From NCBI RefSeq assembly GCF_010686655.1, contig NZ_JAAGVY010000014.1, positions 1 to 64,000 of the forward strand: 64,000 bases of DNA, written 5' to 3'. Shown piece by piece: positions 1 through 19,091 of the stretch; position 1 is the stretch's first letter, and each line of letters starts with the position of its first letter. The translations under genes were made by a program, and so were the position numbers. The notes under the pieces were generated by a model. It was not told where the DNA came from, did not search any database, and worked only from the letters and a program-made list of their open reading frames with translations. The DNA is from Cryomorpha ignava (GTDB taxonomy: Bacteria; Bacteroidota; Bacteroidia; Flavobacteriales_D; Cryomorphaceae).

Positions 1-2
1 CA

Positions 3-736: not shown

Positions 737-930
737 TTACAATTGAATTTACAAATTATAATTAATTACCAGAATAATAATTCGATCAAAAAACAAAATT
801 CTTGTTGATGCGATAAAACATTGCACAAATTAGATGGAGAGATGCCGCCCTTTTGACGGAAAGGAATTCGTATGGACAGGGCTTTACCTGGTGGGGAATT
901 TTATCGATGGGTTGCACCCATCGCTTTTAA

Positions 931-951
931 ATATCGCCCTTTCAGGGCTTC
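931..951. repeat. Inverted copy of the REP-like hairpin motif (gaagccctgaaagggcgatat on the minus strand)
   Basis: On the minus strand it matches 57059-57079 (aaagccctgaaagggcgacat) at 19 of 21 nt. gccc-tgaaa-gggc forms a small hairpin. Confidence 0.5.
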
Positions 952-1222
952 AATTTACTTGAGAATCTGTATAGCTGATTTCTTTCATCTCTTTTATATG
1001 TCACTCTTCTGACCGACGACTTTGAGGGAATGCCTATGCAAGGGAATCCATATGGATTATTTAAATATGTAAGCGCTTTAAAACTAAAGTGTGAAAACAC
1101 ACAATCAAATCTACTTATATAAAAGACCCAACTCACGCCTTAACTATTTTTAGAGGCGACGAACATTATGCCAGTATTAAATCTGCTATGAACTAAATCT
1201 TCGCTGTCTTCATTTTCATCAT

Positions 1223-1876
1223 CTACTTCCCCAACAAACCTTCCATCGCAATCTCCAACTTATTCAACCTTTCTTCAATAGAAAAAGTAGAAATGGCATT
1301 CATCTCTTCAATTTTTTGAAAAACTCTAAAAAGCCTTTTGGTCTTCGATTTCGTAATTTGATTCCCGTTTTCTATTGTGGTTATTTTCTTATCAATACTT
1401 AGATATACCCCGTTTTCTGAAATGATATTCTGTTCGGTGCACAGTAAAATAGTGCCGGAATGAAGGTTGGTATTTATGTTTTCATTTACTTCAATTGCCA
1501 GTTCTCCTTGCACAAAGTGCTTTGGGAACTTGAAGGTTGGAAAGTTTGACATGCTCTCCTTCTTTAAAAAGCTATCCCAGTTGCGCGCAGATACAATAGG
1601 TATGGAAACGGTTTCTAGAGCAGAATTATTCACAATAAAATTCTGTAAGTTGAATTTTGCATACTCATTTACGGTAAGTTCCATTGTAATGAGCTTTTCG
1701 AGCGGAATGTTGAAATATTTAGCAATTTTAATCGCCACATCCATCTTGGGTTCTGCTCTATTTTCTTCATATGCACTTATACTAGCGCGAGTCAAGTCAA
1801 ATAAGTTAGCAAAGTCAGACTGACTCAATCCCTTGATTGTTCGTATCTTTCGAATATTCTTCCCTATTGAACTCAT
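1223..1876 (-). CDS. XRE-family HTH transcriptional regulator with uncharacterised C-terminal domain
   Basis: MSSIGKNIRKIRTIKGLSQSDFANLFDLTRASISAYEENRAEP... is a Cro/C1-type HTH. The start is set at the internal Met at the HTH. The C-terminal ~140 aa has no S24 peptidase motif. Confidence 0.6.
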   Translation of the reverse strand: MSSIGKNIRKIRTIKGLSQSDFANLFDLTRASISAYEENRAEPKMDVAIKIAKYFNIPLEKLITMELTVNEYAKFNLQNFIVNNSALETVSIPIVSARNWDSFLKKESMSNFPTFKFPKHFVQGELAIEVNENINTNLHSGTILLCTEQNIISENGVYLSIDKKITTIENGNQITKSKTKRLFRVFQKIEEMNAISTFSIEERLNKLEIAMEGLLGK

Positions 1877-2069
1877 AATATTGCTAATAATTTGTACATT
1901 TGCTAAAAATGTGTTAATATTGTCACGTAAAATTAGCAACAAGTATATGGAAAAATAAAAAAAGAATCAAAAACTTAACTCTCTGACATAATATTATTTG
2001 CTTTCCTTTAGGGAAATAATAAATTTACAGCATAGAGAGTAATCAAACTAAAATTTAAAACGATTAATA

Positions 2070-2476: not shown

Positions 2477-3190
2477 ATGAATTTTTTAAAAAGATTATTT
2501 AAAATAGGACAAGCCGAAACACATTCGGCAATAGATAAATTGGAAGATCCAATTAAACTTACAGAGCAAGGTATTCGCGATATGAAGGAAAATCTTTCTA
2601 AGAGCTTGCAGGCTTTAGCAGAAGTTAAAGCAATGGCTATTCGCGCCAGAAACGATAATGAAACTTATACTGATAATGCAACGGACTATCAGGAAAAAGC
2701 AATGCTTTTGCTTCAACGCGCTGAAAAAGGAGAGCTTGAAGGTGCAGAAGCAGATCGCCTGGCAACTGAAGCTTTGATGAAAAAAGCAGAAAACTCGAAA
2801 ATGGCAGAGACTTCACTTACTGAAAAAGATAGATTTGAAAAGTCGGTTGTGCAACTTGAAGGAAATGTAAAGACCATTAAAACCAATATTGGCAAATGGG
2901 AAGCTGAATTAAAAACGCTGAAAGCACGCGTAAAAGTGAGCAACGCAACAAAGAGTTTAAACAAGCAATTGGCTCAAATTGACTCTACCGATACGGTTTC
3001 TTTGCTTGAGCGCATGAAAGAAAAGGTAGCTCAGGAAGAAGCTTTGGCAGAATCTTACGGCGAAATTGCAAATGAAAGCAGAAGTATTGATGAAGATATC
3101 GACAAAGCGCTTGAAGGAAGCGTGGCCAGTAAAGCTCAAGATGAATTGGCAGATTTGAAAGCAAAAATGTCAAAAGGGAAGTTAAATTAG
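2477..3190 (+). CDS. PspA/IM30 (phage-shock protein A / Vipp1) family protein
   Basis: 237 aa, all alpha-helical coiled coil. The N-terminus MNFLKRLFKIGQAETHSAIDKLEDPIKLTEQGIRDMKENL is typical of PspA/IM30. Confidence 0.8.
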   Translation: MNFLKRLFKIGQAETHSAIDKLEDPIKLTEQGIRDMKENLSKSLQALAEVKAMAIRARNDNETYTDNATDYQEKAMLLLQRAEKGELEGAEADRLATEALMKKAENSKMAETSLTEKDRFEKSVVQLEGNVKTIKTNIGKWEAELKTLKARVKVSNATKSLNKQLAQIDSTDTVSLLERMKEKVAQEEALAESYGEIANESRSIDEDIDKALEGSVASKAQDELADLKAKMSKGKLN

Positions 3191-3229: not shown

Positions 3230-3877
3230 ATGATAGAATTATTCCATGCTACCTTTTCGCCTGTGAATATCATTCCGGCCATTATACTCACTTTCGTGGT
3301 GTGCTATTGGTTACTGATCATTTTCGGTGCCTTGGATATTAATTCCTTTGATGTTGAGGTTGATCTTGATGCCGATATGGACATTGATGCCGATGGTGGC
3401 ACGTCAGAATTTTCGGTTTCGTGGTTAAACAACGTTTTGTCATTCTTCAATATCGACAAGATTCCATTGATGATTTTTCTGACTTTCACAGCCATTCCGC
3501 TTTGGGCAATAGCAGTAATGGTCAATCATATACTGGGTAACGAATCGTTTTTGCTATCGCTGCTTTTCCTTATTCCAGAGTTTATTCTCAGCGTTTTAAT
3601 CGCAAAGCCGTTGACCATTCCGTTTGTGAAAATATTTAGCAAACTGAATGAACCGACTGAACAAAATGCAAATTTACTTGGGAAAATGGGCAAAGTGGTT
3701 ATTAGTGCATCAGATTTGAAAATGGGACAAGCTGATGTGAATATCGATGGATCGAGCTATCGCTTGAACATCAAAACAAAAAATGGAAAAATAATGCGTG
3801 GCGAAAGTTTGCTTATCGTCAATTTCTCAGAGCTGGACAAATGCTACATAGTTGAGCCTTATGAATCAATCAATTAA
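3230..3877 (+). CDS. NfeD-like / YqiJ-family inner-membrane protein (OB-fold C-terminus)
   Basis: N-terminal TM helices, an acidic DVEVDLDADMDIDADGG stretch, more TM segments, and a C-terminal beta-rich segment (GKMGKVVISASDLKMGQADVNIDGSSYRLNIKTKNGKIMRGESLLIV). It lies immediately upstream of the flotillin gene, as in yqiJ-yqiK. Confidence 0.6.
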   Translation: MIELFHATFSPVNIIPAIILTFVVCYWLLIIFGALDINSFDVEVDLDADMDIDADGGTSEFSVSWLNNVLSFFNIDKIPLMIFLTFTAIPLWAIAVMVNHILGNESFLLSLLFLIPEFILSVLIAKPLTIPFVKIFSKLNEPTEQNANLLGKMGKVVISASDLKMGQADVNIDGSSYRLNIKTKNGKIMRGESLLIVNFSELDKCYIVEPYESIN

Positions 3878-3887: not shown

Positions 3888-6029
3888 ATGGAAATGTTAG
3901 GTAATATCGGCTTCGGGATAGTCATCTTAGTCGTAATAGTCATCATCGGAATTATCGTGATGATTTCAAGATGGTACAAAAAAGCATCGCAAGGACAAGC
4001 GATTGTGAGAACCGGGGTGGGTGGAACAAGAGTTTCCTTCAATGGAATTTTAATCGTTCCCGTTTTGCACCGAATGGAAACAATGGATATTTCATTAAAA
4101 GCCATTCAAATCGAAAGAGCCGGTGCGGCAGGATTGGTTTGTAGAGATAACATCAGAGCCGACATCAAGGTTGCGTTCTTCATCCGTGTAAACAAAACGC
4201 TTGAAGATGTAATTCAGGTGGCGCAATCTGTAGGCTGTATTCGTTCGTCAGATCCCGCAGCACTAAACGATCTTTTTGACGCAAAATTTTCGGAAGCGCT
4301 TAAAACCATTGGTAAGAAGTTCGATTTTGTTGACTTGTACAATAAACGCGACGAATTTAGAGAAGAGATCGTCAATATTATCGGTACCGATTTGAATGGT
4401 TTCATTCTCGACGATGCCGCGATTGACTATTTGGAACAAACGCCGCTTTCGCAAATGGATGAAAGTAATATTCTCGACGCGGAAGGTATCAAGAAGATTA
4501 TCAGCATTACGTCGCGAGAGAAAATTCAGTCGAACCAAATTGAGAGAGACAGACAAAAAACAATTAGAAAGCAAGATGTTGAAGCGCAAGAAGCCATTCT
4601 GGAGCTCGACAAACAACTTGCAGAGAAGGAAGAAAAGCAAAAACGGGAAATTGCGAATATAAAATCGCGCGAAGAAGCCGAGATTGCTAAAGTACAGCAA
4701 GAAGAGACTCTGAAATCGGAAAGATCGCGCATTATAACCGAAGAAGAAATTCAAATTTCGGAACAGAATAAAGAGCGTGAAATAATTGTAGCATCAAAGA
4801 ATAAAGAAAGAACTTCCGCTGTTGAAACAGAGAGAATTGAGAAGGACAGATTGCTGGAAGTTACCGAGAGAGAGCGTATTGTAACGCTGGCGCAGATTGC
4901 GAAAGAGAAAGCAATTGAAACCCAGAAGCGTGATATTCAGGAAGTCATTCGGGAGCGTGTGGCGATTGAAAAAACGGTGGTTGATGAAGAAGAAAACATC
5001 AAGGACACTCGTGCAAGAGCTCTGGCCAATCGCGAGAAATTAGTCGCTGTCACCAAAGCGGAAGAATCTGCGGAAGCGGCACTTGTAGAGAAAATTAAAG
5101 CAGCTGAAGCAGCCAACCAGGCGGCAGAATTTACGGCAAAGCAAGTCATTATTGAAGCTCAGGCCGAAGAAGAATCTTCCATAAAGCGTGCAGCAGCCAT
5201 GAAAACCATGGCCGATGCCGAAGCGGCCAGGGAAGCAGCTCACGGAATAGCCGAAGCACAAGTAATGGAAGCGAAAGCCACTGCAAGACAGAAAGAAGGA
5301 GATGCGGAAGCCGCAGTAATTGAAGCACGCGCTATGGCTGAAGCCAAAGAAATTCAAGCGAAACAACATGCACGAGCCATTTCCGATTTGGAAATAGGTA
5401 AAGCCGAAGCTGAAGTAATCGAAGCAAAAGCGGTAGCCGAACAGAAAAAAGGACTTGCAGAAGCTGTGGTGAGCAAAGAGAAGTACGATGTGGAGGCAGA
5501 AGGAATTCACAAGAAAGCCGATGCCATGAAAAAATTGGACGGCGTTGGAAAAGATCACGAAGAATTCAAGTTGCGATTGGATAAAGAGAAATCGGTTGAA
5601 TTGGCTCAAATCAGCATCCAGAAAGATATAGCAGATGCTCAGGCCGAAGTTATTTCGAATGCGTTGAAAACTGCAAAAATCGATATTGTTGGTGGTGAAG
5701 CTGTATTCTTTGATAAGATTATTAGCGCCATTTCAAATGGAAAATCGGTGGAGCGTATGATTGACAACAGCGGTACTTTGGGTCAATTGAAAACCCAATT
5801 GCTTGATGGTATCGATGGCTCTACATTGAAAGAGAAGATTGGAAGTTTGGTAGATCAGTTTGGAATTTCATCTGACGATTTGAAGAACCTTTCGGTAAGC
5901 GCATTGATTTTTAAAATGATGCAAGAGAATAGCGATGATAAGCAGCAAGGGGTTTTAAACTCGTTGCTTTCGGCGGCGAAGGCCGCGGGAATTGGTGAAA
6001 AGACGCCGCATAGTTTGGGGATTAAGTAA
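3888..6029 (+). CDS. Flotillin-family (SPFH/band-7) protein, YqiK-like, with long E/A/K-rich coiled-coil tail
   Basis: N-terminal TM segment, then an SPFH core (QAIVRTGVGGTRVSFNGILIVPVLHRMETMDISLKAIQIERAGAAGLVCRDNIRADIKVAFFIRV). This is followed by ~400 aa of EA-rich heptad repeats. Confidence 0.85.
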   Translation: MEMLGNIGFGIVILVVIVIIGIIVMISRWYKKASQGQAIVRTGVGGTRVSFNGILIVPVLHRMETMDISLKAIQIERAGAAGLVCRDNIRADIKVAFFIRVNKTLEDVIQVAQSVGCIRSSDPAALNDLFDAKFSEALKTIGKKFDFVDLYNKRDEFREEIVNIIGTDLNGFILDDAAIDYLEQTPLSQMDESNILDAEGIKKIISITSREKIQSNQIERDRQKTIRKQDVEAQEAILELDKQLAEKEEKQKREIANIKSREEAEIAKVQQEETLKSERSRIITEEEIQISEQNKEREIIVASKNKERTSAVETERIEKDRLLEVTERERIVTLAQIAKEKAIETQKRDIQEVIRERVAIEKTVVDEEENIKDTRARALANREKLVAVTKAEESAEAALVEKIKAAEAANQAAEFTAKQVIIEAQAEEESSIKRAAAMKTMADAEAAREAAHGIAEAQVMEAKATARQKEGDAEAAVIEARAMAEAKEIQAKQHARAISDLEIGKAEAEVIEAKAVAEQKKGLAEAVVSKEKYDVEAEGIHKKADAMKKLDGVGKDHEEFKLRLDKEKSVELAQISIQKDIADAQAEVISNALKTAKIDIVGGEAVFFDKIISAISNGKSVERMIDNSGTLGQLKTQLLDGIDGSTLKEKIGSLVDQFGISSDDLKNLSVSALIFKMMQENSDDKQQGVLNSLLSAAKAAGIGEKTPHSLGIK

Positions 6030-6178
6030 TGTCTGTCCAGAAAGCCCGCTATCGGCGTTGCACTTGAATTGAAAACAGTCATTGACAAATGTCAACTCCT
6101 TGCTTTTCAATTCTGCGTGCGCCTTGCTATCGAACTTTCTGACTCAGACATTTGAGTGCGTTGACATACCCAGAAATT
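6028..6178. mobile_element. MITE-like element, copy 1 (5' terminus aatgtctgtcc...; 3' end degenerate)
   Basis: About 150 bp that align with 56702-56928 over both arms. It contains the internal hairpin attgacaaatgtcaa. It starts at or overlapping the TAA stop of the flotillin gene. Confidence 0.6.
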
Positions 6179-6289
6179 AGACTGTAGTGAGTAAGTTATT
6201 TAAGGTAAAGTGTTTCAAATTTCGGAATACTTTACCCTTTATTATTCGGATTAGAATTCGTGAAAATCAATATTTAGTGAACTAAACAA

Positions 6290-9200
6290 ATGCAAGAAGA
6301 GCAAGAAAATACAGAAGAGCCGGGCACCGTTTTAGAGCAGGGAACTTACGAGATCATCAAAGATCGACTGTTAAAGCAGGGCGATATTTTACGTTCGAAG
6401 CTGGATAAGCTCAACGAAGCCAGAAAAGATGTGTTTGGTGCTATTGAAACGACTTTGCTCACCACAGAGCGCATTACCACAGAAAACAATTGTGTACCAC
6501 GGGACATGGTTGCGATAGCCGATAATTTCATTTTTGGCTATAACGTTTTTATGGGCTTGAAATCGGTTACGCTTTTAACGGATGTTTTTAACATTTATGA
6601 ATATAAAGACCGGAGTTTTATTAAGAAGGACTTGGAGCTGATTAACAACCAGTCTTTTATTCGCGACTTTGAAAATCTATACAAATACTATAAGCAAACA
6701 CAGTTTGCAAAGTTCGCTGTAACCGGCCCGTTTCTCTACATTATTTTTAAAATTGGTGACAACGAAACCGACATCAAAGTTTTTAAATGGCAGATTGATG
6801 GCAATGCTTTAATTTATTCGGAAGATAGGGCTGCGAATGAATTTAGTTTTCCCGATCAGCAGCAGTTTCGATGGAAGAAAACGACGCGCGATATGTTTCG
6901 TGACGGGCTACACCCGCATATTTCTATTGAAGATCAAATTTTCGTAGAAACCGTTGGCGGCGATTTGACTATTAAAATAGAAGACAATACTGAAGATGGG
7001 AAGGGGATTTTTAACGAGCCGGTTGAATACAAAGACCAGGTGCTGCACGATGCTGAAATTCTTTACTCTATCGTTGGAAATTTGATTTTTCTGAAGATCA
7101 AACCTTATAAGGAAAACACGTTTCGGTACATTATATACAACAAGAAAATTCAGCAGGCTATGCGTGTTGATGATATTGAGAATGCGTGCGTTTTGCTGCC
7201 CGAAGACTATGGTGTGATTTTCCCGAAAGGATATTATTTACAAACCGGCGAATCCAAAATATTCAATACCGATTTGAATTCGATGCTTTACGAAAAGACC
7301 ATTGAATCGCCCAACGGAGAAGATTTTCTATATATTTTTTACAATAGAAAATCGGGAACTTACATTTTGCTTTCGTATAATTTAATTTCGCAAACTGTTG
7401 CCAACCCTGTTATTTGCCACGGCTATTCCATTTTCGGCAGTGGCGAGATGTGCTATTTTAAGGGCGAAAATGAAGCTCAGAAACATCATGCTATTCAGAT
7501 TTGGCAAACACCTTATTTATTAGATGTTGCCGACTTTGTTGGAAAAGAAGATTCCTTTTTATCCAAAATTGGAAATAAGGACATTGTGAAGGGAATGGCG
7601 GAGAGTAATGAAGTGCTAAGCCTGATACATAAAAAGGACTCTTACGCCAATCTTTACATCGATATTGTAAGGAAAGTAACGGGTATTGTCGATTCGTTTT
7701 ATTGGCTTGATAAAAAGGAAGCGTTTAATTTGAGTGCTACGCTTGCTGAAATCAGAACCGTTGCAGATTCTGCCATTAATGAGTTTGAGAAAGTCATTAA
7801 AATCAAGAAGAATACGCAAGAAGAATTTAAACGTGTAGAAGTGGAGGTTACCGCTTTGATGCGCGCGTTGAAAATTGCGAAATTCAAGGATATTGATGAA
7901 TTTGTGAAGCTCTTGGCTGAAATTAGAAACATTCGCGGACAGGTAATGAGCCTGACCGATTTGCGCTATATAAACGAAGCGGCCATTGAGAATTACGAAG
8001 AAAAGCTAAAGGCCGAAAATGAGAAGCTCTCGCAGAAATGCGTCAAGTTTTTGTTGAAAAAGGAAGCTTTATCTTATTATGAAACCAAGGTGAAAGAGCT
8101 AAGCGATTCTGTTCATAAACTCACCAAAGTAGTTGAAGCCAATGAGCTGGAAGAAGATGTATTGAAAACATCGAAAGAGCTTGAAATGCTGATTGAGATT
8201 GTGAGTAATCTCAAGATCGAAGATGCGACCCAAACTACTACTATAATCAATAATATTTCAGAAATATACGCTTCGTTCAATCAAATAAATGCCGCACTTA
8301 AAAGAAAGCGAAAAGAGCTGTTTTTGGTGGAAGGCGAAGCCGAATTTCATTCCCAGTTAAAACTAATCAGCCAGGGAATCATCAATTATCTCGACATTTC
8401 TGATACTACAGAAAAGTGTGAAGAATATTTAACCAAGCTGATGATTCAGCTGGAAGAGCTTGAAGGCAAATTCAGTGAATTTGATGAATTTTTAGATAAG
8501 ATAAGCGAGAAGCGCACAGAAGTTTACAATGCCTTTGAAGCGAGAAAAGTGCAGCTCATTGAGAAGAAAAACAAGCGTACTTCTGCCTTGCAGGCTTCTG
8601 CCGATAGAATTTTGGCAGGAGTGAAGCATAGGCTGGAAGGAATGGAAAATATGGATGCCATTAATGGATACATGGCGTCTGACCTGATGGTAGATAAGTT
8701 GCGAAATATTGTTCAGGAATTGATTGGCCTTGGCGATACCGTGAAGGCAGATGAAGTGCAAGGAAAGCTAAAGTCAACACAAGAAGATGCCATTAGACAG
8801 CTTAAAGACAAGACTGATCTTTACGATGGCGAAAACCTTATTTCTTTCGGAAAGCACAAATTTTCGGTCAATAATCAATTGCTCGACCTTACGATTGTGC
8901 CGCGAAGTAATGCCATGTTTTACCACGTAACCGGAACCAACTTTTTTGAAGAGATTAAAGATCCGAAGTTCCTGGCTACCCGTGAAGTCTGGGATCAAGA
9001 GTTGATTTCTGAAAATAATACAGTGTATCGATCAGAATATTTGGCCTTATTACTTTTTAATGCCATTTCAAATTCAAAAAACTTTACGCTAAAAGATGCT
9101 GCACGCTGGCCAGATGAGCGGATGGAAAGTTTCATTGCTGAATTCGTTGCTCCGCGCTATGACGAAGGCTACAGCAAGGGCGTTCACGATGAAGACGCAG

Positions 9201-11182
9201 CTCTTATTTTGTGGGAACTCTTAGACATGACCACCAAAGGCGGCGTGTTGAAATACGATCCAAAAGCCAGAGTAGGAGCTATCTATTTCTGGAATTTATA
9301 CTTGAACAAAGAAAAAAGACAAAGCTTAAACAGCGAAATAAAGGGCGCCGGAATAATCCTGAAAGCTTTTCCAAATTCGAATGCGTTTAGCGACTTGATT
9401 GGAAAAATTGAAAGCTTAATGATTGACTTTTCAAATCAGCAATCTGTTTTCCTTCAGGAGAATGTAAAAGATGCAGCCAGTTATTTATTTGCCGAATTAG
9501 CTGACAACGGCATTTTTAGCGTTAGCAAAGGCGCAAGCGATTTTAAAACCGAATTTCAAAAGAACTTAAAAGAGAACAAGCAGGAGAAAAACTATCAGGA
9601 TTCGATTGATTCCATAGATTCTCCAGAAGGGAAATTTACGCTGATAAGAAGTTGGTTGCTCGCTTTCGCGGAAACGCAAACAGGTAATTTTGACACAATT
9701 ATTGATGAAACAGCTCTTGTTTTGGCCGAAAGCGATCAGGAATTCAAATTGGTTGATGCGTCACTAAACGTTTCTATCGAAGGCATTCAAGGTGAGCACT
9801 CCAGAATTGCTAATGGCGAATTAATCGTTGATTACCATAATTATAATAATCGATTAAGAAATTTTCATGCTAAAACAGTACCAGCTTTTCAGCAATTTAA
9901 GGAATTGAAAAAAGAATTAATTGATACTTATCGTGAAGAGCTGAAGCTAAATGAGTTGAAGCCGCGAGTGATGAACTCTTTTGTACGCAATGAATTGATC
10001 AATAAGGTTTATCTGCCAATGATTGGCGATAACCTGGCAAAGCAAATAGGAACGGCCGATGCCAATAAGCGAACAGATTTGATGGGTATGCTGCTACTGA
10101 TTTCTCCGCCGGGATATGGTAAAACCACGCTGATGGAATATATTGCCAGCAGGCTGGGTGTGATTTTTCTGAAAATTAACGGCCCGGCAATTGGGCATGA
10201 AGTTACATCGCTCGACCCAACAGATGCGCCCAACGCGGGAGCGCGAGAAGAAATTGAAAAGCTGAATCTCGGTTTGGAAATGGGCGATAATGTGATGATT
10301 TATCTCGATGATATTCAGCATTGCAACCCCGAGTTTCTACAGAAGTTTATCTCCCTTTGCGATGCCCAGCGAAAGATAGAAGGCGTTTACAAAGGAAAGA
10401 GCAAGACCTATGACTTGCGCGGAAAGAAAGTCTCGGTAGTAATGGCCGGAAATCCATATACCGAAAGCGGCGACAAATTCAAGATTCCGGATATGCTTGC
10501 CAATAGAGCCGACATTTACAATCTGGGCGATATTCTGGGCGGAAACAAACGGGCTTTCGAATTGAGCTATATTGAAAACAGTTTGACATCGAATTCCACT
10601 TTGCGCAAACTGTCCGGAAAGAGCCAGCAAGATCTCTACACATTTATTCAGATCGCCGAAACCGGCGAGAGTGAAGGACTTGATTTTGAGTCAAACCACT
10701 CTGCCGAAGACATTGCTGATTATGTGAACACTTTAAAGAAGCTCATTCAAATTAGGGATGTCGTTTTAAAAGTAAATCAACAATACATTCAGTCGGCAGC
10801 GATGGAAGAGCAATACCGTATGGAGCCTTCGTTTAAGTTGCAGGGCTCGTACCGAAATATGAATAAAATGGCCGAGAGAGTCGTACCGATAATGAATGAA
10901 GATGAGCTGAAAACGCTCATCATGAACAACTACGAAAACGAATCTCAAACATTGACAACCAGCGCCGAGGCAAACTTATTAAAATTCAAATCGCTTATGG
11001 ATTGGCAAACACCAGAAGAAGAAAAACGCTGGCAAGAGTTGATTGCTATTTTTCTGAAAAATCAGAAGATGAAGGGTTTTGGGGGTGATAATCAGATTGG
11101 TTTGATTTTGAATCAGATGGAGGCGCTTTCGGAGGGGCTGTTTGGTATTAAGAATGTGCTGGCTAAGGGGAAGGGGGAGTGA
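6290..11182 (+). CDS. Giant (1630 aa) multidomain protein: N-terminal beta-rich region, ~450-aa coiled-coil, C-terminal AAA_5/MoxR-like AAA+ ATPase domain
   Basis: Uninterrupted ORF. Walker A LLISPPGYGKTT, Walker B VMIYLDDIQH and sensor-1-like VVMAGNPY sit in the last ~350 aa. The central region is heptad-rich and K/E-rich. No match to a named family could be made by eye. Confidence 0.8.
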   Translation: MQEEQENTEEPGTVLEQGTYEIIKDRLLKQGDILRSKLDKLNEARKDVFGAIETTLLTTERITTENNCVPRDMVAIADNFIFGYNVFMGLKSVTLLTDVFNIYEYKDRSFIKKDLELINNQSFIRDFENLYKYYKQTQFAKFAVTGPFLYIIFKIGDNETDIKVFKWQIDGNALIYSEDRAANEFSFPDQQQFRWKKTTRDMFRDGLHPHISIEDQIFVETVGGDLTIKIEDNTEDGKGIFNEPVEYKDQVLHDAEILYSIVGNLIFLKIKPYKENTFRYIIYNKKIQQAMRVDDIENACVLLPEDYGVIFPKGYYLQTGESKIFNTDLNSMLYEKTIESPNGEDFLYIFYNRKSGTYILLSYNLISQTVANPVICHGYSIFGSGEMCYFKGENEAQKHHAIQIWQTPYLLDVADFVGKEDSFLSKIGNKDIVKGMAESNEVLSLIHKKDSYANLYIDIVRKVTGIVDSFYWLDKKEAFNLSATLAEIRTVADSAINEFEKVIKIKKNTQEEFKRVEVEVTALMRALKIAKFKDIDEFVKLLAEIRNIRGQVMSLTDLRYINEAAIENYEEKLKAENEKLSQKCVKFLLKKEALSYYETKVKELSDSVHKLTKVVEANELEEDVLKTSKELEMLIEIVSNLKIEDATQTTTIINNISEIYASFNQINAALKRKRKELFLVEGEAEFHSQLKLISQGIINYLDISDTTEKCEEYLTKLMIQLEELEGKFSEFDEFLDKISEKRTEVYNAFEARKVQLIEKKNKRTSALQASADRILAGVKHRLEGMENMDAINGYMASDLMVDKLRNIVQELIGLGDTVKADEVQGKLKSTQEDAIRQLKDKTDLYDGENLISFGKHKFSVNNQLLDLTIVPRSNAMFYHVTGTNFFEEIKDPKFLATREVWDQELISENNTVYRSEYLALLLFNAISNSKNFTLKDAARWPDERMESFIAEFVAPRYDEGYSKGVHDEDAALILWELLDMTTKGGVLKYDPKARVGAIYFWNLYLNKEKRQSLNSEIKGAGIILKAFPNSNAFSDLIGKIESLMIDFSNQQSVFLQENVKDAASYLFAELADNGIFSVSKGASDFKTEFQKNLKENKQEKNYQDSIDSIDSPEGKFTLIRSWLLAFAETQTGNFDTIIDETALVLAESDQEFKLVDASLNVSIEGIQGEHSRIANGELIVDYHNYNNRLRNFHAKTVPAFQQFKELKKELIDTYREELKLNELKPRVMNSFVRNELINKVYLPMIGDNLAKQIGTADANKRTDLMGMLLLISPPGYGKTTLMEYIASRLGVIFLKINGPAIGHEVTSLDPTDAPNAGAREEIEKLNLGLEMGDNVMIYLDDIQHCNPEFLQKFISLCDAQRKIEGVYKGKSKTYDLRGKKVSVVMAGNPYTESGDKFKIPDMLANRADIYNLGDILGGNKRAFELSYIENSLTSNSTLRKLSGKSQQDLYTFIQIAETGESEGLDFESNHSAEDIADYVNTLKKLIQIRDVVLKVNQQYIQSAAMEEQYRMEPSFKLQGSYRNMNKMAERVVPIMNEDELKTLIMNNYENESQTLTTSAEANLLKFKSLMDWQTPEEEKRWQELIAIFLKNQKMKGFGGDNQIGLILNQMEALSEGLFGIKNVLAKGKGE

Positions 11183-11264
11183 TGATTTTGAGATTTAGAG
11201 CGTGGATTTTTACTAATGTTAAAGACGATTTCAAAAATGTGGAATTGATCCTTAATTTTAAAAA

Positions 11265-11651
11265 ATGAGTAGACCATTAAACTTAAACAGTCAAGGAGAA
11301 GTAGTCAACTTAAAAGAAGGCAGATACGGAGTTTACATACTTGGTGGATTTGGAATTAGTCTTGGTCATTTCTCAATTTCACTTAAACATATAGGAAAAA
11401 ATGAAGAGATTAAAAGTGTGAAAGCCTTTTGGCCAGTACAAACTTTTGTCAATGGAGAAAGAGCGAAAAAAATATTTATTATAAATGTGATTAAATCAGG
11501 ACAATATGAAGTGATATTCCATAATCCCAAAACTGTAGAAGTGAAAAGCTCAAATTTACTAACTAGTTCGTTTTTCAATAGCCCATTGTTAAATGATAAT
11601 TTGGAAGTAATATTTACAAAAAAGCTGGTGCCTTTCGGTTTCGTAAAATAG
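11265..11651 (+). CDS. Hypothetical protein (128 aa) inside the inserted segment
   Basis: An ORF with no recognisable motifs. It lies between the giant gene's stop and the decayed island genes. Confidence 0.35.
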   Translation: MSRPLNLNSQGEVVNLKEGRYGVYILGGFGISLGHFSISLKHIGKNEEIKSVKAFWPVQTFVNGERAKKIFIINVIKSGQYEVIFHNPKTVEVKSSNLLTSSFFNSPLLNDNLEVIFTKKLVPFGFVK

Positions 11652-11736
11652 AAATACACATACTTGTCTTTCAACTTGATGGAATATGGATTTAGAACGC
11701 TTTTTACAGAAATTTCGAATCTAAGTTGAAAAACTA

Positions 11737-11976
11737 TTGACCAAGGTAAAAAACATATTACTGATTGTCCTGCTTATTATAATCGGTATTCCTTTGTTTA
11801 TTCTGGCAATTCCGTTTATGATCCTAGTTGTTATTATTGGATATTTTCAACGGAAAAAATATTCGAAGTTTTTAAGTGACAACAACGGTAAAAATTTCTT
11901 AAACTCGATAAACCTAAAATACGGATATTCTACAATAGACATCAGATCACCAAAAGAAGTTACACATGGAGACTAA
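11737..11976 (+). CDS. Hypothetical small membrane protein (79 aa, two TM helices)
   Basis: ILLIVLLIIIGIPLFILAIPFMILVVIIGYF is a hydrophobic hairpin followed by a basic stretch. Confidence 0.35.
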   Translation: MTKVKNILLIVLLIIIGIPLFILAIPFMILVVIIGYFQRKKYSKFLSDNNGKNFLNSINLKYGYSTIDIRSPKEVTHGD

Positions 11977-12250
11977 TAAAAAGCCAGGCAAAGAATTTCA
12001 TGCCGTGGAATTTATGAGACAGGTACGTGAAGAAATGACCGAACAGTTCATTGAAGACAGACAAAAATACTTGGAGTATTTGAAAAAATCGATCGCAGAT
12101 TTTAAAATCAGGCAGGCTAAAGCATTCAATAAGGAAGGGCTATAGACAATGAGGCAATGGTTTAACGTAATGACGAACTAAGTCACAAGACATTCATTAC
12201 GAAATAAGATAAAGTAGCGATTGAGAGAGATGAATAATTTGACTTTTTAT

Positions 12251-12285
12251 AGCAAATCAGGCTCAAGAGTTAAATCTTGGTTTCA
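12251..12285. repeat. Direct repeat of the 3' end of the HTH gene (tagcaaatcaggctcaagagttaaatcttggtt); second copy at 13270-13304
   Basis: An exact ~34-bp duplication. The downstream copy encodes the C-terminus (LANQAQELNLGYE) of ORF 12851..13309. Confidence 0.6.
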
Positions 12286-12391
12286 AATAATTCAATTATT
12301 TATAGAGTTAAGACACTTCATGCAGCCGAGAATAATCTTATGAAACGGGTAGTTTAAATCTTTGCCGATTTTTATCTTTATTTCAAATCAG

Positions 12392-12705
12392 ATGGCAAAA
12401 GGAAGAACATTACAGGTAAAAGAATCTGCAATTACGCTTATCACTCAAACCGAAATCGACTATATCAGCTTGACCGATATGACTTCGACTTTTAGAGTGG
12501 ATAGCGGTTTAATTGGGAAATAAGATTACCAACAAAAATACGTTGGAAAATTTGGATGTTTGGGAACGCGTAAATAACCAAAGTTTTAATTACCCTGCCA
12601 TACGGCATTCCTTCGGTCGTCGGGGTAATTGAAATGGAAGCCGGAACAAATAGATTCATAATGTCTGTGCGGCAATGGATTAACAGAGTACAAGCAATTG
12701 GATAG
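12392..12705 (+). pseudogene. KilA-N domain protein, multiply frameshifted remnant
   Basis: Three consecutive frame pieces resemble the common Bacteroidota KilA-N protein. They are MAKGRTLQVKESAITLITQTEIDYISLTDM..., then ...NTLENLDVWERVNNQSFNYPAIRHSFGRRGN*, then MEAGTNRFIMSVRQWINRVQAIG*. These match MAK..ISLTDIARY..TIDFLGLWE..NP.F...EAGSNSFTMSPSQWIE.TGAVG, but no single frame is intact. Confidence 0.55.
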
Positions 12706-12850
12706 ATTACGACAAATTGAAGCTAAAGCCCCCGTAAATCACTTTTTATGCTTTTTGACATAAGCTGACTTCTAGTAGCGCTATCGAATATTTCGTTCGT
12801 TTCGTCTATTTCGTTTCAAAATTATTCGTATTTTTGGTAAAAGAAAGATT

Positions 12851-13309
12851 ATGGAAGCAATAACAGAACAAACTACAAAGGCGGATCAAAAAATTGCTCT
12901 TAACTCTTTGGATGCGTTACTAAATGTTTCGAATAGAGTAAAAGCATCACGAAAAACAGGCGTGAAAATTAAAGTTCAAGAAACTGGTGAGTTCATGACA
13001 ATACCTAAAAAAGCCTTGGAGCTTCTTTTTTCTATTGTTCAGAACATGTCTGAGGGAAGATCTATTTCTTTAGTTCCTTCTGATTTGGAAGTAAGTACCC
13101 AGCAAGCAGCAGACATGCTAAATGTTTCGCGACCTTACTTAGTGAAGTTGATAGAGTCTGGTAATATTCCTTTTAAAAAAATTGGAAGCCATAGAAGAAT
13201 TCTATTACAAGATATTATTGCCTATCAATCGAAATTAGCGTGCGAGAGAGAAAAACAACTTGATTTTTTAGCAAATCAGGCTCAAGAGTTAAATCTTGGT
13301 TATGAATGA
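12851..13309 (+). CDS. HTH (excisionase/MerR-like HTH_17) putative antitoxin partner of the PIN gene
   Basis: DMLNVSRPYLVKLIESGNIPFKKIGSHRRILLQDIIAY is a helix-turn-helix excisionase-family motif. It overlaps the PIN ORF start by 4 bp. Confidence 0.5.
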   Translation: MEAITEQTTKADQKIALNSLDALLNVSNRVKASRKTGVKIKVQETGEFMTIPKKALELLFSIVQNMSEGRSISLVPSDLEVSTQQAADMLNVSRPYLVKLIESGNIPFKKIGSHRRILLQDIIAYQSKLACEREKQLDFLANQAQELNLGYE

Positions 13310-13876
13310 TTCACTCACCAGTCTTGACGGTTGTGATAGATGCATGTGTTTTGTATCCAGCCCCTATTAGAGACGTTTTACTTTCAATGGCTTTTGAAGG
13401 CTTATTTGAACCTAAATGGTCTAGAGCTATTCAGGACGAATGGACAGGAAACCTTTTAATTAACAGGGAAGACTTAAATAAAAAACAACTGGATGGAACA
13501 ATTCAAGCAATGAATCGTGCTTTTCCTGATTCAAATGTTCTAAATTTTGAAGAGCTTATTCCGAGCTTGTCATTACCAGATAAAGATGATAGGCATGTTT
13601 TAGCTTGTGCAATAAAATGCAAGGCAGATTTGATTACAACGTTTTAATTTAATAGATTTCCCATCTAAAACAATTGAGAAGTATGGTATTCAGATTCAAA
13701 ATCCAGATGAATTGATTTGTAATTTGATTAATATGAACGAAAAAATAGCTTGCAAGGCTTTTGCAAAAATGATTAGTCGCTTAAAAAATCCGCCTAAAAC
13801 AAAATTTGAAGTGGCAGCAACTTTGAAAAAATGTGGATTGACGAAAAGTTCAAATCGATTGAAAAACTTATGCTGA
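13306..13876 (+). pseudogene. PIN-domain (VapC-like) toxin gene with +1 frameshift in a T4 run
   Basis: Frame 0 reads MIHSPVLTVVIDACVLYPAPIRD...DRHVLACAIKCKADLITTF*, with the stop at 13645-13647. The canonical PIN continuation FNLIDFPSKTIEKYG... is in the +1 frame and reads on to a TGA at 13874-13876. Removing one T from tttt (13642-13645) restores ...ADLITTFNLIDFP... Confidence 0.55.
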
Positions 13877-13932
13877 CCGCTAAGGCAAGCACGCTCACGA
13901 CCGCCGACCGAATGAAGTCCACATGGAGCCTT

Positions 13933-13998
13933 CGTTTAATTTGCAGGGTTTGTTTGGGATTAAGAATGTGCTGGCTAAGGGGAATGGAGATGAGCGAA
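13933..13998 (+). repeat. Internally deleted duplicate of the 3' end of the giant ATPase gene (footprint / att-like repeat)
   Basis: 13933-13960 matches 10819-10846 (atggagccttcgtttaa[g/t]ttgcaggg). 13958-13998 matches 11138-11178 (ctgtttgg.attaagaatgtgctggctaaggggaa.gg.ga). The junction falls at a shared gggct microhomology, which suggests loss of ~290 bp between the two parts. Confidence 0.65.
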
Positions 13999-14060
13999 GT
14001 GAATGAGATAATGGTATACAATAAAAACCTTACAATCAATTATTTAGTTGAAAACAAAAA

Positions 14061-14609
14061 ATGAGATTTAATCCATTTCCCGAAATTAAAACCAAAAGGC
14101 TTTCACTTAGAAAAATTCTAGAGTCAGACTGTGACGAAATTCTATTCTTACGTTCAGATAAAACGGTCAATGCATACATTGAAAGAGCTGAGAATAGAAA
14201 AACTAAGAATATATCTGATGCAATAAAATTCATCAAGAATACAGCTGAATATCTCGAAACAGGCCGGTCAATCGCTTGGGGAATAACTCTAAATGGCGAC
14301 TCAGAAATTATTGGAACAATTTGTTTGTGGAATTTTTCTGAGAACAATAAAATTGCCGAAGTTGGATATGATTTGAACCCTAAATTTCAGGGGAAAGGTA
14401 TTATGAGTGAGACTCTCAGGAAGGTTATCGACTTTGGTTTTAAAGAATTAAAACTTGACAAAATAGAAGCATTCACAAACTCTGAGAATGTACGTTCTAC
14501 AAAACTGTTAGAAAATAACGGCTTTCGCTTAAACGGGGATCGAAAAGATATAGACAATGACTCAAATATTATATTTGAACTTGATAATACCAGTAGCGAA
14601 AATGGATAA
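14061..14609 (+). CDS. GNAT family N-acetyltransferase (RimJ/RimL-like)
   Basis: 182 aa with an acetyl-CoA binding region ...KFQGKGIMSETLRKVIDFGFKELKLDKIEAFTNSENVRSTKLLENNGF. Confidence 0.75.
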   Translation: MRFNPFPEIKTKRLSLRKILESDCDEILFLRSDKTVNAYIERAENRKTKNISDAIKFIKNTAEYLETGRSIAWGITLNGDSEIIGTICLWNFSENNKIAEVGYDLNPKFQGKGIMSETLRKVIDFGFKELKLDKIEAFTNSENVRSTKLLENNGFRLNGDRKDIDNDSNIIFELDNTSSENG

Positions 14610-14682
14610 GAATAATTAGGCAGTTTGGCTGTGATGTTAAGTCACTAAGCTGCAGTTAAATCACGAAATAAAACAAAAAACA

Positions 14683-15084
14683 ATGATCGGATTAGACGAC
14701 AAAAAAGGCCACATAGCCGCATTAATAAAATTGGCAAAAGCCGATGGTGTCATTTCACAATACGAATCGAATTTAATTAAAATGATTGCCATAAGAATGG
14801 GAATCTCAAGCAACGATTTTAATGAAATCGTAATCAATATCGAGAGTGTCAATTCTTTACCGCCATCAAAAAGAGAAGAAAAAGAAGTGTATTTATACAA
14901 CCTTTTTATGCTGATGAAGATTGATTTGAAAACCGATCCTGACGAACAAAAAATGTGCGAAGAGCTTGCGCTACGCTTGGGCTTTGGCGTCGATGAAGTA
15001 AAAAGATCCGGAGAGTTTATGACAGCGAATCTAAGTGAAGTGACTGATTTTGATGATTTTATAAACGTTTTAAATAACAAGTAG
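14683..15084 (+). CDS. TerB-like (tellurite-resistance TerB / DjlA N-terminal-like) domain protein, paralog 1
   Basis: HIAALIKLAKADGVISQYESNLIKMIA...DEQKMCEELALRLGF. It is paralogous to the next ORF. Confidence 0.55.
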   Translation: MIGLDDKKGHIAALIKLAKADGVISQYESNLIKMIAIRMGISSNDFNEIVINIESVNSLPPSKREEKEVYLYNLFMLMKIDLKTDPDEQKMCEELALRLGFGVDEVKRSGEFMTANLSEVTDFDDFINVLNNK

Positions 15085-15087
15085 AGC

Positions 15088-15540
15088 ATGAATTATTGGG
15101 AAAAGATAGTTGCGTTATTTAGGAGTGAAGACAAAAAACCGCCCATTCCGGGCATGGACGATAAAACATCATTGATTTTGCTCTTGATTAAATTGGCGCA
15201 AATAGATGGGCATGTAAACCACTTTGAGCAGATGAACATTCACATGCTTTCAAATACGCTTGGAGTTGACATCAGGGATGTGAACAAATGGCGCGATCAG
15301 TTGGAAGATGTGGTATTGGTTTTACCCAAAACCAAAATAGAACGTGTAGATTATTTCTGGCGATTTGTTACCATGATGAATATGGATTTAAATGCCCACC
15401 CGAAAGAGCAGAGAATGTGCGTAGAACTTGCCGATGCGCTTGGCTTTAGAAAAAGTAGGGTAGAAGAAGCTATGGCTTTTGCGCTTGATAGGAGAAATGG
15501 AGCCATTAAATTTGACGATATGAAGGGAATTTTGGTGTAA
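15088..15540 (+). CDS. TerB-like domain protein, paralog 2
   Basis: LLLIKLAQIDGHVNHFEQMNIHML...KEQRMCVELADALGF. It follows paralog 1 with a 3-bp gap. Confidence 0.55.
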   Translation: MNYWEKIVALFRSEDKKPPIPGMDDKTSLILLLIKLAQIDGHVNHFEQMNIHMLSNTLGVDIRDVNKWRDQLEDVVLVLPKTKIERVDYFWRFVTMMNMDLNAHPKEQRMCVELADALGFRKSRVEEAMAFALDRRNGAIKFDDMKGILV

Positions 15541-15830
15541 TATGTTTTCTTAATCCCGCAACTCAATTCATAAAATATATAGGATATCTGAATCTCATCA
15601 ATCAAGAAATAAATATCATAGCTAAGCCTTGATTGCTGAAAAAATAAGATCAATTCTTAAAAAAAGAAGAACCATGCTCAAAAAGCGTCGTGGAAAAGCA
15701 TTTCTGAATTCTCAAACCCATTAAGCGAAGAAATAGAAGTAAAACAAGCATCCACTACTTGATATCACCAAATTTCGGCCAAAGTAGTCTTCAAGATTGA
15801 ACGGCTCTATGCTCTACTGCTGCCTGAATT

Positions 15831-16469: not shown

Positions 16470-19091
16470 TCAGGCTATCAAACTATCCATCTCTTCTTTA
16501 AGCGGTTTTCTAAAAACCACTTGACCATCAAAAACATCCATCACCAGAGGTTCATCCCTATCTACATCACCGGCTAATATTTGTTTGCTCAATGCATTTA
16601 GCACATCTTTTTGAATAAGTCTTTTTACCGGCCTTGCGCCAAATTGCGGATCATAACCTTTCTCTGCGAGATAGCTTATCGCATCTGGACTTGCGCTGAA
16701 ATCTATATTTCTGTCAAGCAATCTTTCTGCGAGTCTTTTCAATTGAAGTATGACAATGTTCTCGATATTTTTTCGAGTCAATTGTCTAAACATTACCACT
16801 TCGTCTATTCGATTTAAAAACTCGGGGCGAACAGATTTTTTAAGCAAGGCAAAAACTTCATTCTTAGTTTGTTCAGCCATTTCGTCTGAAAACCCCTCTC
16901 GTGCACTTTCGAAATTCTCTTGAATAATATCAGAACCAATATTCGAAGTCATGATAATAATGGTATTCTTGAAATTTACTTTCCTTCCTTTATTATCAGT
17001 CAATGTACCTTCGTCGAGTACCTGAAGCAAAATATTGAACACATCGGGATGCGCCTTCTCAATTTCATCAAGCAACACCACAGAATAAGGTTTTCTGCGA
17101 ACAGCTTCTGTAAGCTGGCCACCTTCTTCGTAACCAATATATCCGGGAGGTGCACCCACAAGTCTGCTTACGCTGTGACGCTCCTGATATTCGCTCATAT
17201 CAATACGTGTCATCGCGTGCGGATCGTTAAAAAGGTATTCGCTCAAGGCTTTGGCTACTTCAGTTTTACCAACTCCTGTAGTTCCCAGAAAGATAAACGA
17301 ACCTATCGGGCGCTGCTCATCCTGTAGTCCGGCTCTACTTCTACGTACTGCATCAGCAACAGCTGTAACCGCCTCATCCTGACCCACAACTTGTTTGTGA
17401 AGCACGGTTTCGAGGTGAAGTAATTTTTCACGTTCACTTTCAAGCATTTTGCGCACTGGAATCCCTGTCCACCTGCTCACTACATCAGCTATTTCTTCTT
17501 CGTCAACTTCCTCCTTAATCATCTTGGAGTTTTTCTGCTCATCAACTAATTGACGCTGGAACTCTGCAATTTTCTCTTCGCTCTCTTTTACTTTTCCATA
17601 GCGAATTTCGGCTACACGGCCGTAATCGCCTTCGCGTTCTGCTTTTTCGGCTTCAAATTTCAACTGCTCCACTTTTTCTTTTTCCTGCTGAATGCTCTCA
17701 ACGAGATTTCGCTCAGTTTGCCATTTAGCCGACAAGCTATCGCGCGTTTCTGAAAGGTTAGCAATTTCCTCGGCAAGATCCTGAAGTTTTGCCTGATCCT
17801 TTTCGCGTTTTATTGCCTCACGCTCAATTTCAAGCTGCATAATTTTTCGCTCTATCTCATCGAGCTCTTCAGGCTTAGAGTTTATCTCCATGCGAAGCTT
17901 AGAAGCTGCCTCGTCTATAAGATCAATAGCTTTGTCGGGAAGAAATCTGTCTGTAATATACCGTTGAGATAATTCTACCGCTGCTATTATTGCCGAATCT
18001 TTGATACGCACCTTGTGGTGAGCTTCGTATTTATCTTTGATACCGCGAAGAATGGAAATGGCCGCTTCACGATCGGGCTCATCTACCATTACCTTTTGAA
18101 AACGCCTCTCAAGGGCTTTGTCTTTTTCAAAATATTTTTGGTACTCATTAAGAGTGGTAGCTCCTACTGCGCGCAATTCTCCACGAGCAAGTGCCGGTTT
18201 CAAAATATTGGCGGCATCCATAGCTCCTTCACCACCACCGGCACCAACGAGAGTGTGAATCTCGTCTATAAACAAAATGATTTCGCCCTCTGCAGCAGTT
18301 ACTTCCTTAACAACTGCCTTGAGACGTTCCTCAAATTCACCTTTGTACTTCGCCCCGGCTATAAGCGCCGCCATATCAAGGCTAAAAACTTTTTTGTCGC
18401 GCAGGTTATCGGGCACATCTCCAGTTACAATTCTGTGTGCAATACCTTCAGCGATAGCTGTTTTCCCCGTTCCAGGCTCTCCAATTAAAATAGGATTATT
18501 TTTTGTCCGTCTGGTCAAAATTTGCAGCACTCTGCGTATTTCTTCGTCGCGACCTATTACAGGGTCTAGCTTACCTTCGGCTGCCAGTTCGTTCAGATTT
18601 TTGGCGTATTTATTTAACGCATTATACGTTTCTTCCTGGCTTGCGGAGGTTACTTTTTCACCTTTCCGTAGCTCAAGAATCGCCGCTTTTAAATTCTTTT
18701 TGGTGATTCCCTGATCCTTTAGAATGCGCGAACCTGAATCATCACCTTCAAGTACTGAGAGTAAAAGATGCTCGAGCGAAACAAATTCATCGCCAAACTC
18801 TTTTAGCAATGTGAATGATCTGTTTAGAGCGTCTCTCATTCCGCGACCCATTTGCACTTCGCCACCGGTAACTTTAGGGTAAGATGCAATTTGCTTGTCA
18901 AGCATCTGGTCAAAGAGATCCGTATTTACAGAAAGCTTTTTGAGTAAATACGGTACCACATTCTCGTCCACATCTATCATTGCTTTTAGCAAATGCGGAG
19001 TTTCCATTATTTGCCCTCCCGCTGATGCAACAATTTGCTGTGCACTCTGAATGGCTTCCTGCGATTTAATTGTAAGTTTTTGAAAATCCAT
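16470..19091 (-). CDS. clpB: ATP-dependent chaperone ClpB
   Basis: 873 aa. N-domain, two AAA+ modules ([13 protein letters not shown]... and [15 protein letters not shown]), a long M-domain coiled coil and a C-terminal ARPVKRLIQ motif. Confidence 0.95.

Follow-up and report, generated by a model that had tools for sequence, protein, structure and literature searches.

The 64,000-nucleotide stretch of Cryomorpha ignava DNA considered here (the window; positions 1 to 64,000 of contig NZ_JAAGVY010000014.1) carries, at 6290-11182 on the plus strand, a gene that starts with ATG and encodes a giant soluble ATPase of 1630 aa belonging to the DUF3686 or “DNA repair ATPase” family. The open reading frame (ORF) had been proposed in a preliminary description of this DNA and is a real gene, its product showing 100% identity to a Cryomorpha ignava protein annotated as “AAA domain-containing protein”. 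The ATPase gene closes a series of genes for membrane-associated proteins, and comparison of gene order across genomes shows that the core of this series is a three-gene module, comprising a YqiJ/NfeD-like protein, a YqiK-type flotillin and the ATPase, to which PspA is a lineage-specific addition.

The ATPase gene is preceded on its own strand by four genes, which are separated from one another by short gaps of 11, 39 and 10 bp. The first (2070-2465) encodes a CesT/Tir-like chaperone of 131 aa, matched over its full length by Pfam CesT_Tir_1 (PF22550, E=2.3e-51), and the second (2477-3190) an ESCRT-III-like PspA/IM30 protein of 237 aa (Pfam PspA_IM30, E=2.1e-38). These are followed by a YqiJ/YuaF-type NfeD-like membrane protein of 215 aa (3230-3877) and a YqiK-type flotillin of 713 aa (3888-6029), the latter with an N-terminal transmembrane segment (the translation has a hydrophobic N-terminus), an SPFH domain, an A/E-rich coiled coil and a flotillin tail. 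Neither the 713-aa nor the 215-aa protein is significantly matched by Pfam in its own right, and Pfam Band_7 matches 3 of 22 flotillin family members, the window flotillin not being among them; the identities of the two partners rest on profiles built from orthologues and aligned by hhalign to E. coli YqiK and YqiJ. The flotillin family profile aligned to YqiK at 100% (E=3.7e-40, 391 aligned columns) and the YqiJ-like family profile to YqiJ at 96% (E=2.6e-9, 175 columns), with weak support for the latter protein from Pfam YqiJ_N (E=0.013) and the YuaF OB-domain structure (PDB 2K14, E=0.08). The presence of PspA, NfeD (YqiJ) and flotillin (YqiK) genes upstream on the same strand, as given in the preliminary description, is hence confirmed by Pfam for PspA and by hhalign for the other two, while the CesT_Tir_1 gene had been missed, as had a divergent XRE-family helix-turn-helix (HTH) regulator gene on the minus strand (1223-1942; Pfam HTH_19/HTH_3, E~1e-13), for which the ATG at 1876 is the likely start.

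For the comparison of gene order, a pattern scan with one genome per species returned at least 585 loci, of which the best 80 were analysed. According to the record titles, these comprise 37 loci from Bacteroidota, 19 from Verrucomicrobiota, 14 from Planctomycetota, 5 from Clostridia, 3 from Desulfobacterales, 1 from Kiritimatiellota and 1 unassigned; their ORFs were searched with the upstream proteins of the window and with iterated hidden Markov models. A tblastn search of plasmid records added seven loci from Pseudomonadota, Actinomycetota and Deinococcota, bringing the set to 87 loci from nine phyla in all. Of the 73 loci whose upstream sequence exceeds 700 bp, 68 have a flotillin gene immediately before the ATPase gene in the same orientation; where more than 3.2 kb is available (62 loci), the flotillin gene in turn comes immediately after a YqiJ-like gene in 55. 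All seven added loci (Pseudomonas fluorescens pQBR103, Proteus mirabilis, Vibrio campbellii, Halomonas, Streptomyces, Nonomuraea and Deinococcus) display the same YqiJ-flotillin-ATPase order. Over all 87 loci, this arrangement is seen in 75 of the 80 whose upstream flank is long enough. Furthermore, the pairwise distances of the YqiJ, flotillin and ATPase proteins correlate (r=0.60-0.78), which argues that the three genes are inherited as a unit. Clustering of the neighbourhood ORFs of the 80 loci, both up- and downstream, revealed nothing conserved beyond YqiJ, flotillin, PspA, CesT and the HTH regulator. Distribution of the family is patchy, its carrier plasmids including pQBR103 and plasmids of Hymenobacter, Streptomyces and Deinococcus, and a homologue is missing from phage records.

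The upstream part of the window operon is far more restricted. PspA is found in 20 of the 80 loci, and the CesT gene together with the divergent HTH gene in 18 (every CesT locus having the HTH gene), all of them in Bacteroidota, while in roughly three loci out of four there is no PspA gene within 10 kb, including all of the Planctomycetota, Verrucomicrobiota, Clostridia, Actinomycetota and Deinococcota examined. The preliminary description had tied the ATPase to the membrane-scaffold genes as a group, a tie that would be lost if orthologues occurred without Psp or flotillin neighbours; in the neighbourhoods examined, this is not the pattern for flotillin, and the flotillin part of the tie stands, whereas the PspA part does not extend beyond Bacteroidota and pQBR103. 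On the latter, a well-studied megaplasmid of P. fluorescens SBW25 (L082, record 84437-97641), a PspA operon of the order YjfI-PspA-rhomboid-DUF2491-DUF350-DUF1190-glutathionylspermidine synthase is immediately succeeded by the YqiJ-SPFH-ATPase triad, an arrangement that represents a second, independent joining of a CesT-like/PspA pair to the triad.

The complete operon is already known as a comparative-genomics prediction, and the window provides another member of it. Ravi et al. (mSystems 2024, PMC11237479; preprint 2020) described CesT/Tir-PspA operons that also encode a YqiJ/YuaF protein with three transmembrane segments (3TM), a band-7/flotillin protein and an AAA-ATPase with a beta-propeller and a coiled coil, exemplified by the flavobacterium Dokdonia donghaensis (ANH61663.1), for which their Table S3 gives the gene order including the divergent cHTH gene. 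The window matches this operon, with the CesT, PspA, YqiJ, flotillin and ATPase genes in order on one strand and a divergent HTH regulator, and agrees with it in gene content, order, domain description of the ATPase and the wider spread of the abbreviated form, since flotillin-YqiJ(-ATPase) operons were likewise reported to be more widespread (Ravi et al., PMC11237479). The same contextual inference as drawn here was thus reached independently by those authors. The Dokdonia counterpart of the XRE regulator is labelled “cHTH+Protease” in the same table; the C-terminal ~150 aa of the window protein gave no Pfam match and have no obvious Ser/Lys S24 peptidase motif. The window is peculiar in that its flotillin-ATPase spacer contains a palindromic repeat and that 3.5 kb of apparently inserted DNA separate the ATPase gene from two TerB genes downstream, while the four-domain anatomy of the ATPase, the invariant DD of its Walker B motif, a polar cluster in its middle domain and the linkage counts are details added to the published picture. 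A full-text literature search found no paper mentioning DUF3686 or PF12458 and no experimental paper on the ATPase family.

The family is large, with more than 4866 homologues of the 1630-aa ATPase at E<=1e-5 in a collection of 5.8 billion proteins, full-length identity between phyla being about 50% and the orthologues ranging from 1600 to 1900 residues. Membership is evident from Pfam DUF3686 (PF12458; 596.5 bits against a cut-off of 25, profile positions 2-448 of 448 covered) and DUF7902 (PF25472; 98.7 bits against 26), in an architecture common to all the top homologues. Transmembrane segments are not predicted, the highest 19-residue Kyte-Doolittle mean being 1.16. C-terminal extensions of 190-350 aa occur in the ATPases of five loci (L009, L012, L022, L053 and L060); that of the Desulfobacterales protein L012 contains ankyrin repeats (record 14954-15709), and Pfam gave no match on the extensions of the Planctomycetota and Verrucomicrobiota ATPases or of L022, a second Desulfobacterota locus. 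A metagenomic protein of 1345 aa (P0137), in which an NfeD1b_N (ClpP-like) domain appears fused to DUF3686, is probably a frameshift or gene-calling artefact, because its residues ~230-480 are rich in R, P, G and A, like an out-of-frame translation of high-GC DNA, and it was not used as evidence. If the fusion is an artefact, the high-GC organism in question would have a long-form NfeD gene immediately before its ATPase gene.

The ATPase consists of four parts, namely a beta-propeller, spectrin-like helical bundles, an orphan helical domain and a MoxR/RuvB-like AAA+ module. The first is the DUF3686 domain (residues 34-471, nt 6389-7702; E=3.4e-179), made up of an N-terminal helix followed by a propeller of ~30 strands. 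In the AlphaFold model of residues 1-700 (mean predicted local distance difference test, pLDDT, of 84), the N-terminal helix is followed by ~30 beta-strands (55-406) and then by helices. Foldseek matched the beta part to many beta-propellers with probability 1.0 (E=2e-6 to 1e-4), among them Elp1, the DCAF1 WD40 domain, CyRPA, prolyl oligopeptidase, Vps18, clathrin heavy chain and IFT-A; since the TM-scores are low in spite of the many matches, the propeller is best regarded as generic and divergent. It is followed by a K/E-rich region (residues 472-870, nt 7703-8899) that includes DUF7902 (residues 592-676, nt 8063-8317).

The third part (residues 871-1250, nt 8900-10039) is mostly helical and has no match in Pfam, in PDB sequences by profile search or in a fold search, and a Pfam scan of the domain in 23 family members gave only scattered single weak matches. 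Its overall conservation is low (36% mean column identity), and within it stands an invariant polar cluster (H879, E908, R914, Y961, K963, G964, H966, D967, D969, R994, W1001 and H1170), which may mark an unrecognised binding or catalytic site. The H...HD.D arrangement had suggested an HD-phosphohydrolase, a reading that was rejected after hhalign against E. coli YfbR returned 0.2%. In the preliminary description, the protein was an undescribed one of three parts that could not be placed in any characterised family, with an N-terminal region devoid of recognisable motifs. This does not hold, as DUF3686, DUF7902 and AAA_5 cover the protein and the operon is published. The three parts are retained with corrections and with the addition of the overlooked middle domain: the supposed coiled coil is K/E-rich as claimed, but models as spectrin-like helical bundles.

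The fourth part comprises the AAA+ module with its lid and helical tail (residues 1251-1630, nt 10040-11179). Both Pfam AAA_5 (residues 1268-1391, E=1.6e-7, 31.9 bits against a cut-off of 22, profile positions 2-125 of 139) and Pfam AAA (PF00004, 26.4 against 21.2) exceed their cut-offs, and across Bacteroidota, Planctomycetota, Verrucomicrobiota, Desulfobacterota, Clostridia and Kiritimatiellota the region 1215-1630 shows 71% mean column identity. The three boxes named in the preliminary description are all present: Walker A (PPGYGKT, residues 1273-1279, nt 10106-10126), Walker B (IYLDDIQH, residues 1337-1344, nt 10298-10321) and sensor-1 (MAGNPY, residues 1385-1390, nt 10442-10459). Walker A agrees with GxxGxGK[ST] within SPPGYGKTT (residues 1272-1280), which is invariant in 29 diverse sequences. 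Walker B departs from hhhhDE, as the sequence is IYLDD, with D1340 and D1341 invariant throughout the family and Asp in the place of the catalytic Glu. Also invariant are N1388 (sensor-1), R1406 (candidate Arg finger) and R1522 (in the lid motif QGSYR, a candidate sensor-2), roles that are assigned by motif position only. The AlphaFold model of the module (pLDDT 81) has a predicted pre-sensor-1 beta-hairpin at residues 1362-1375.

The designation “AAA_5-type” is acceptable at the level of Pfam, while neither profile nor fold comparison fixes the finer AAA+ clade. Foldseek gave weak matches spread over RuvB, MCM, NorQ/CbbQ (MoxR), PspF (a bacterial enhancer-binding protein), HslU and ClpB. RuvB remains below threshold with Pfam RuvB_N (25.4 against 27) and with NCBIfam RuvB (25.3 against 282 and 21 against 299), and the alignment spans only ~45-50 residues around Walker A. 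The MoxR systems (RavA-ViaA, NorQ-NorD and CbbQ-CbbO) share with the ATPase the AAA_5 match over nearly the whole model and the NorQ and CbbQ fold matches; moreover, its motif NP-x-E-x-G-x3-IPDML-x-NR resembles the sensor-1/Arg-finger region of MoxR proteins. They differ from it in that its AAA+ core stands behind ~1250 residues of propeller and helical domains, its Walker B reads DD and E. coli RavA scores low by hhalign. Nor does it have the characteristic partner, as Pfam found no VWA domain among the window proteins scanned and no conserved VWA/MIDAS partner appeared across the 80 loci.

The spacer between the flotillin and ATPase genes bears on whether the two are expressed together. The 260-bp gap reported earlier is confirmed, and calling its content MITE-like (miniature inverted-repeat transposable element) is fair: a palindromic MITE/REP-like (repetitive extragenic palindrome) element of ~145 bp with inverted repeats and a stable fold (z=-3.8) occupies 6027-6170, and a second copy with ~86% identity and a 73-bp central insertion lies at 56700-56920. 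The repeat is absent from the closest long relative (L089, 76% identity), where the gap is 108 bp, and its insertion adds uncertainty to co-transcription in the window. The spacer also holds, on the plus strand at 6204-6236, a terminator-like hairpin of 13 pairs followed by the T-rich tail CTTTATTATT. Such hairpins recur in 28 of 55 related flotillin-ATPase spacers as against 27% of shuffled sequences, at least 11 of them being strong, with stems of 10-12 bp that start ~10-20 nt past the flotillin stop codon; strong hairpins with a T-run were seen in L002, L017, L019, L025, L026, L028, L031, L036, L048, L062 and L065. This recurrence suggests that attenuation sets the flotillin:ATPase ratio, and the hairpin between the two genes probably lowers expression of the ATPase relative to the structural flotillin. 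We infer that the ATPase gene would usually be transcribed by read-through past an attenuating hairpin.

Over the 68 loci, the flotillin-ATPase gap has a median of 122 bp and is 150 bp or less in 38, with two gene pairs overlapping; ORFs inside the long gaps are conserved only among close relatives. Promoter searches were of little help, as the Bacteroidota-type promoter TAnnTTTG has no exact match upstream of the CesT gene or in the 260-bp gap, which is uninformative, and a sigma-70 scan performed no better than on shuffled sequence.

Downstream of the ATPase gene, two TerB-domain genes (Pfam TerB; 133 and 150 aa) lie on the plus strand at 14683-15084 and 15088-15540. Their products share 70% and 69% identity with those of the L089 genes at 11927-12325 and 12327-12779, where the pair begins 18 bp after the ATPase gene; in the window it is displaced by ~3.5 kb (11183-14682). 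The intervening DNA looks like an insertion, with a 128-aa ORF (11265-11651), apparent gene fragments, an HTH_17+PIN toxin-antitoxin-like pair (12851-13647) and a GNAT acetyltransferase gene (14061-14609). The TerB pair was considered as a general member of the operon and rejected, as it is found only in the Cryomorpha lineage. On the other flank, a fragment of an IS200-like transposase gene (300-650, minus strand) lies beyond the XRE regulator; in L089, PLDc_2 and UvrD/AAA_11/AAA_12 helicase genes (1-2018, minus strand) adjoin the regulator gene on its own strand. Outside the operon and the insertion, the region examined to ~39 kb is ordinary chromosome. It includes a gene for the ClpB disaggregase (16470-19091, minus strand), 5 kb downstream of the operon, genes for cargo proteins of the type IX secretion system (T9SS) with CHU_C or Por_Secre_tail domains (19299-23531, 34114-36846 and 37020-39017), a PAS/response-regulator protein (26224-28743), ProC, an enoyl-CoA hydratase and an NlpC/P60 protein.

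Taken from sequence and gene order, the ATPase is probably, though with considerable room for doubt, a dedicated partner of the flotillin-NfeD pair that remodels or regulates the cage formed by it. SPFH cages are known to pair with AAA+ machines, as HflK/C does with FtsH and prohibitin with the m-AAA protease. The present case shares with these an SPFH scaffold and an AAA+ ATPase at the cytoplasmic membrane, here paired by gene order. It differs in that the ATPase, unlike FtsH, has no Pfam protease domain and no transmembrane anchor, its AAA+ matches being to RuvB, MCM and MoxR and none to FtsH, and in that the SPFH partner, unlike HflK/C, is a flotillin of the YqiK type that has an NfeD-like protein at its side. 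The E. coli yqiJK genes have no such ATPase adjoining them; set against the near-obligate linkage of the ATPase to flotillin, this suggests that the ATPase depends on the flotillin as platform or substrate.

The mechanochemical action on the neighbouring assemblies suggested in the preliminary description is a putative one. In the mechanism that we envisage, the ATPase would oligomerise through its AAA+ domain, as AAA+ proteins do, and its propeller and spectrin-like helical arms would dock on the cytoplasmic flotillin-NfeD cage. ATP binding or hydrolysis could drive the assembly, opening or dismantling of this cage, or act on client proteins enclosed by it; parallels are offered by FtsH, surrounded by the cage of HflK/C, and by Vps4 with ESCRT-III. 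Read-through past the hairpin would keep the copy number of the ATPase well below that of the structural flotillin. In Bacteroidota, including the window, the triad joined to the CesT-like chaperone and PspA under the divergent XRE regulator may constitute a stress-inducible membrane-maintenance operon. A more specific version can be put forward only tentatively: the ATPase may be the dedicated energy-dependent regulator of bacterial flotillin-NfeD cages that docks via its propeller and arms and opens or dismantles the cage, with the invariant H/D/K/R/E cluster of the orphan middle domain serving as a ligand-sensing or catalytic site of a kind not seen before, through which a signal of membrane stress would reach the AAA+ motor.

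Several observations weigh against a flotillin-remodelling role. The partnership of ATPase and flotillin rests wholly on gene context, and five loci with adequate flanking sequence (L001, L003, L016, L022 and L038) have no adjacent flotillin gene. The occurrence of yqiJK in E. coli without a neighbouring ATPase implies that the flotillin does not need the ATPase. As the flotillin-ATPase gap is longer than 300 bp in 25 of the 68 loci and these spacers often contain terminator-like hairpins, co-transcription is not assured, in the window or elsewhere. The AAA+ clade is ambiguous (hhalign gives 96% for RuvB, only around the P-loop, and 20% for E. coli RavA), and the AlphaFold model has confidence values under 50 in two places, around the P-loop and from sensor-1 to the candidate Arg finger. 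Finally, a Walker B of the DD type may mean that hydrolysis is slow and that the protein is perhaps a switch.

The last of these points leads to the strongest competing explanation, in which the ATPase is an ATP-controlled scaffold or tether, a slowly hydrolysing nucleotide switch whose propeller and helical arms organise flotillin platforms or anchor them to further partners in the cytoplasm, in the manner of a coat or adaptor. The invariant DD in place of DE agrees with it, as do the succession of propeller and helical repeats seen in coats and adaptors (Foldseek matching clathrin heavy chain, Vps18 and IFT-A) and the additional C-terminal interaction modules of some orthologues, such as the ankyrin repeats of L012. 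The coat-like fold matches, however, have low TM-scores and reflect a generic propeller-then-helices arrangement, while the other catalytic elements of the AAA+ module are all invariant and the conservation of the module is far above what a simple switch would appear to need. We consider this explanation unlikely.

A direct action on PspA, with the ATPase disassembling PspA polymers in the manner of Vps4 and the flotillin providing only a membrane platform, was in part proposed in the preliminary description and appears less likely still. PspA and the CesT-like chaperone do share the operon in the window and in 18-20 Bacteroidota loci, so that the gene for an AAA+ ATPase keeps company with that for an ESCRT-III-like protein of the Snf7/PspA superfamily, and the YjfI-PspA operon of pQBR103 stands directly upstream of the triad; PspA-AAA+ associations have also been discussed as ESCRT-like (Ravi et al., PMC11237479). 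The absence of PspA from most loci nevertheless argues that it is not a general partner and hence that a Vps4-like action on it is not the core function. The protein itself also differs from Vps4, as it has no MIT domain by Pfam, begins with a beta-propeller and finds its AAA+ fold matches in RuvB, MCM and MoxR-type proteins.

Slightly behind this, and improbable on the whole, stands a role in conflict, as a membrane-acting anti-phage component of the abortive-infection type. Such a role would suit the patchy and sometimes plasmid-borne family, the transposase fragment, toxin-antitoxin pair and TerB genes in the window flanks, and the PLDc_2 and helicase genes adjoining the regulator in L089. 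However, PADLOC-DB 2.0 yielded no significant match (mad8 reaching E=0.0036 over the AAA core, and the five other operon proteins none), homologues are missing from phages, and no nuclease or effector is conserved in the neighbourhood. Apart from this, full-length identity of ~50% across phyla is unusual for defence genes, and the remainder of the window, with ClpB, metabolic genes and T9SS cargo, is ordinary chromosome. As for DNA repair, it has in its favour only the names (“ATPase involved in DNA repair” for DUF3686 in Pfam, “DNA repair ATPase” for NCBI relatives) and the RuvB-like matches around the P-loop, and is very improbable given that these matches are sub-threshold and confined to the vicinity of Walker A, that Pfam finds no DNA-binding domain, that conservation in the 87 neighbourhoods extends to membrane proteins and to no repair gene, and that the full-text search found no paper mentioning DUF3686 or PF12458.

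The label “DNA repair ATPase” used in databases has no support; it is very probably misleading and should be corrected. Much work has been devoted to bacterial flotillins and the NfeD proteins that accompany them, yet to our knowledge no energy-dependent factor acting on them is known. The linkage conserved in at least nine phyla, together with a motor of 71% identity, singles out the ATPase as a strong candidate for a factor of this kind and as a well-defined subject for experiments, for which Flavobacterium, Bacteroides, Proteus mirabilis and Pseudomonas with pQBR103 offer tractable hosts. Two details worthy of follow-up are the polar cluster that is invariant in the middle domain and the DD of Walker B. 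If the proposed role holds true, bacterial flotillin scaffolds would have an ATP-driven cycle of their own, comparable to that of Vps4 with ESCRT-III.

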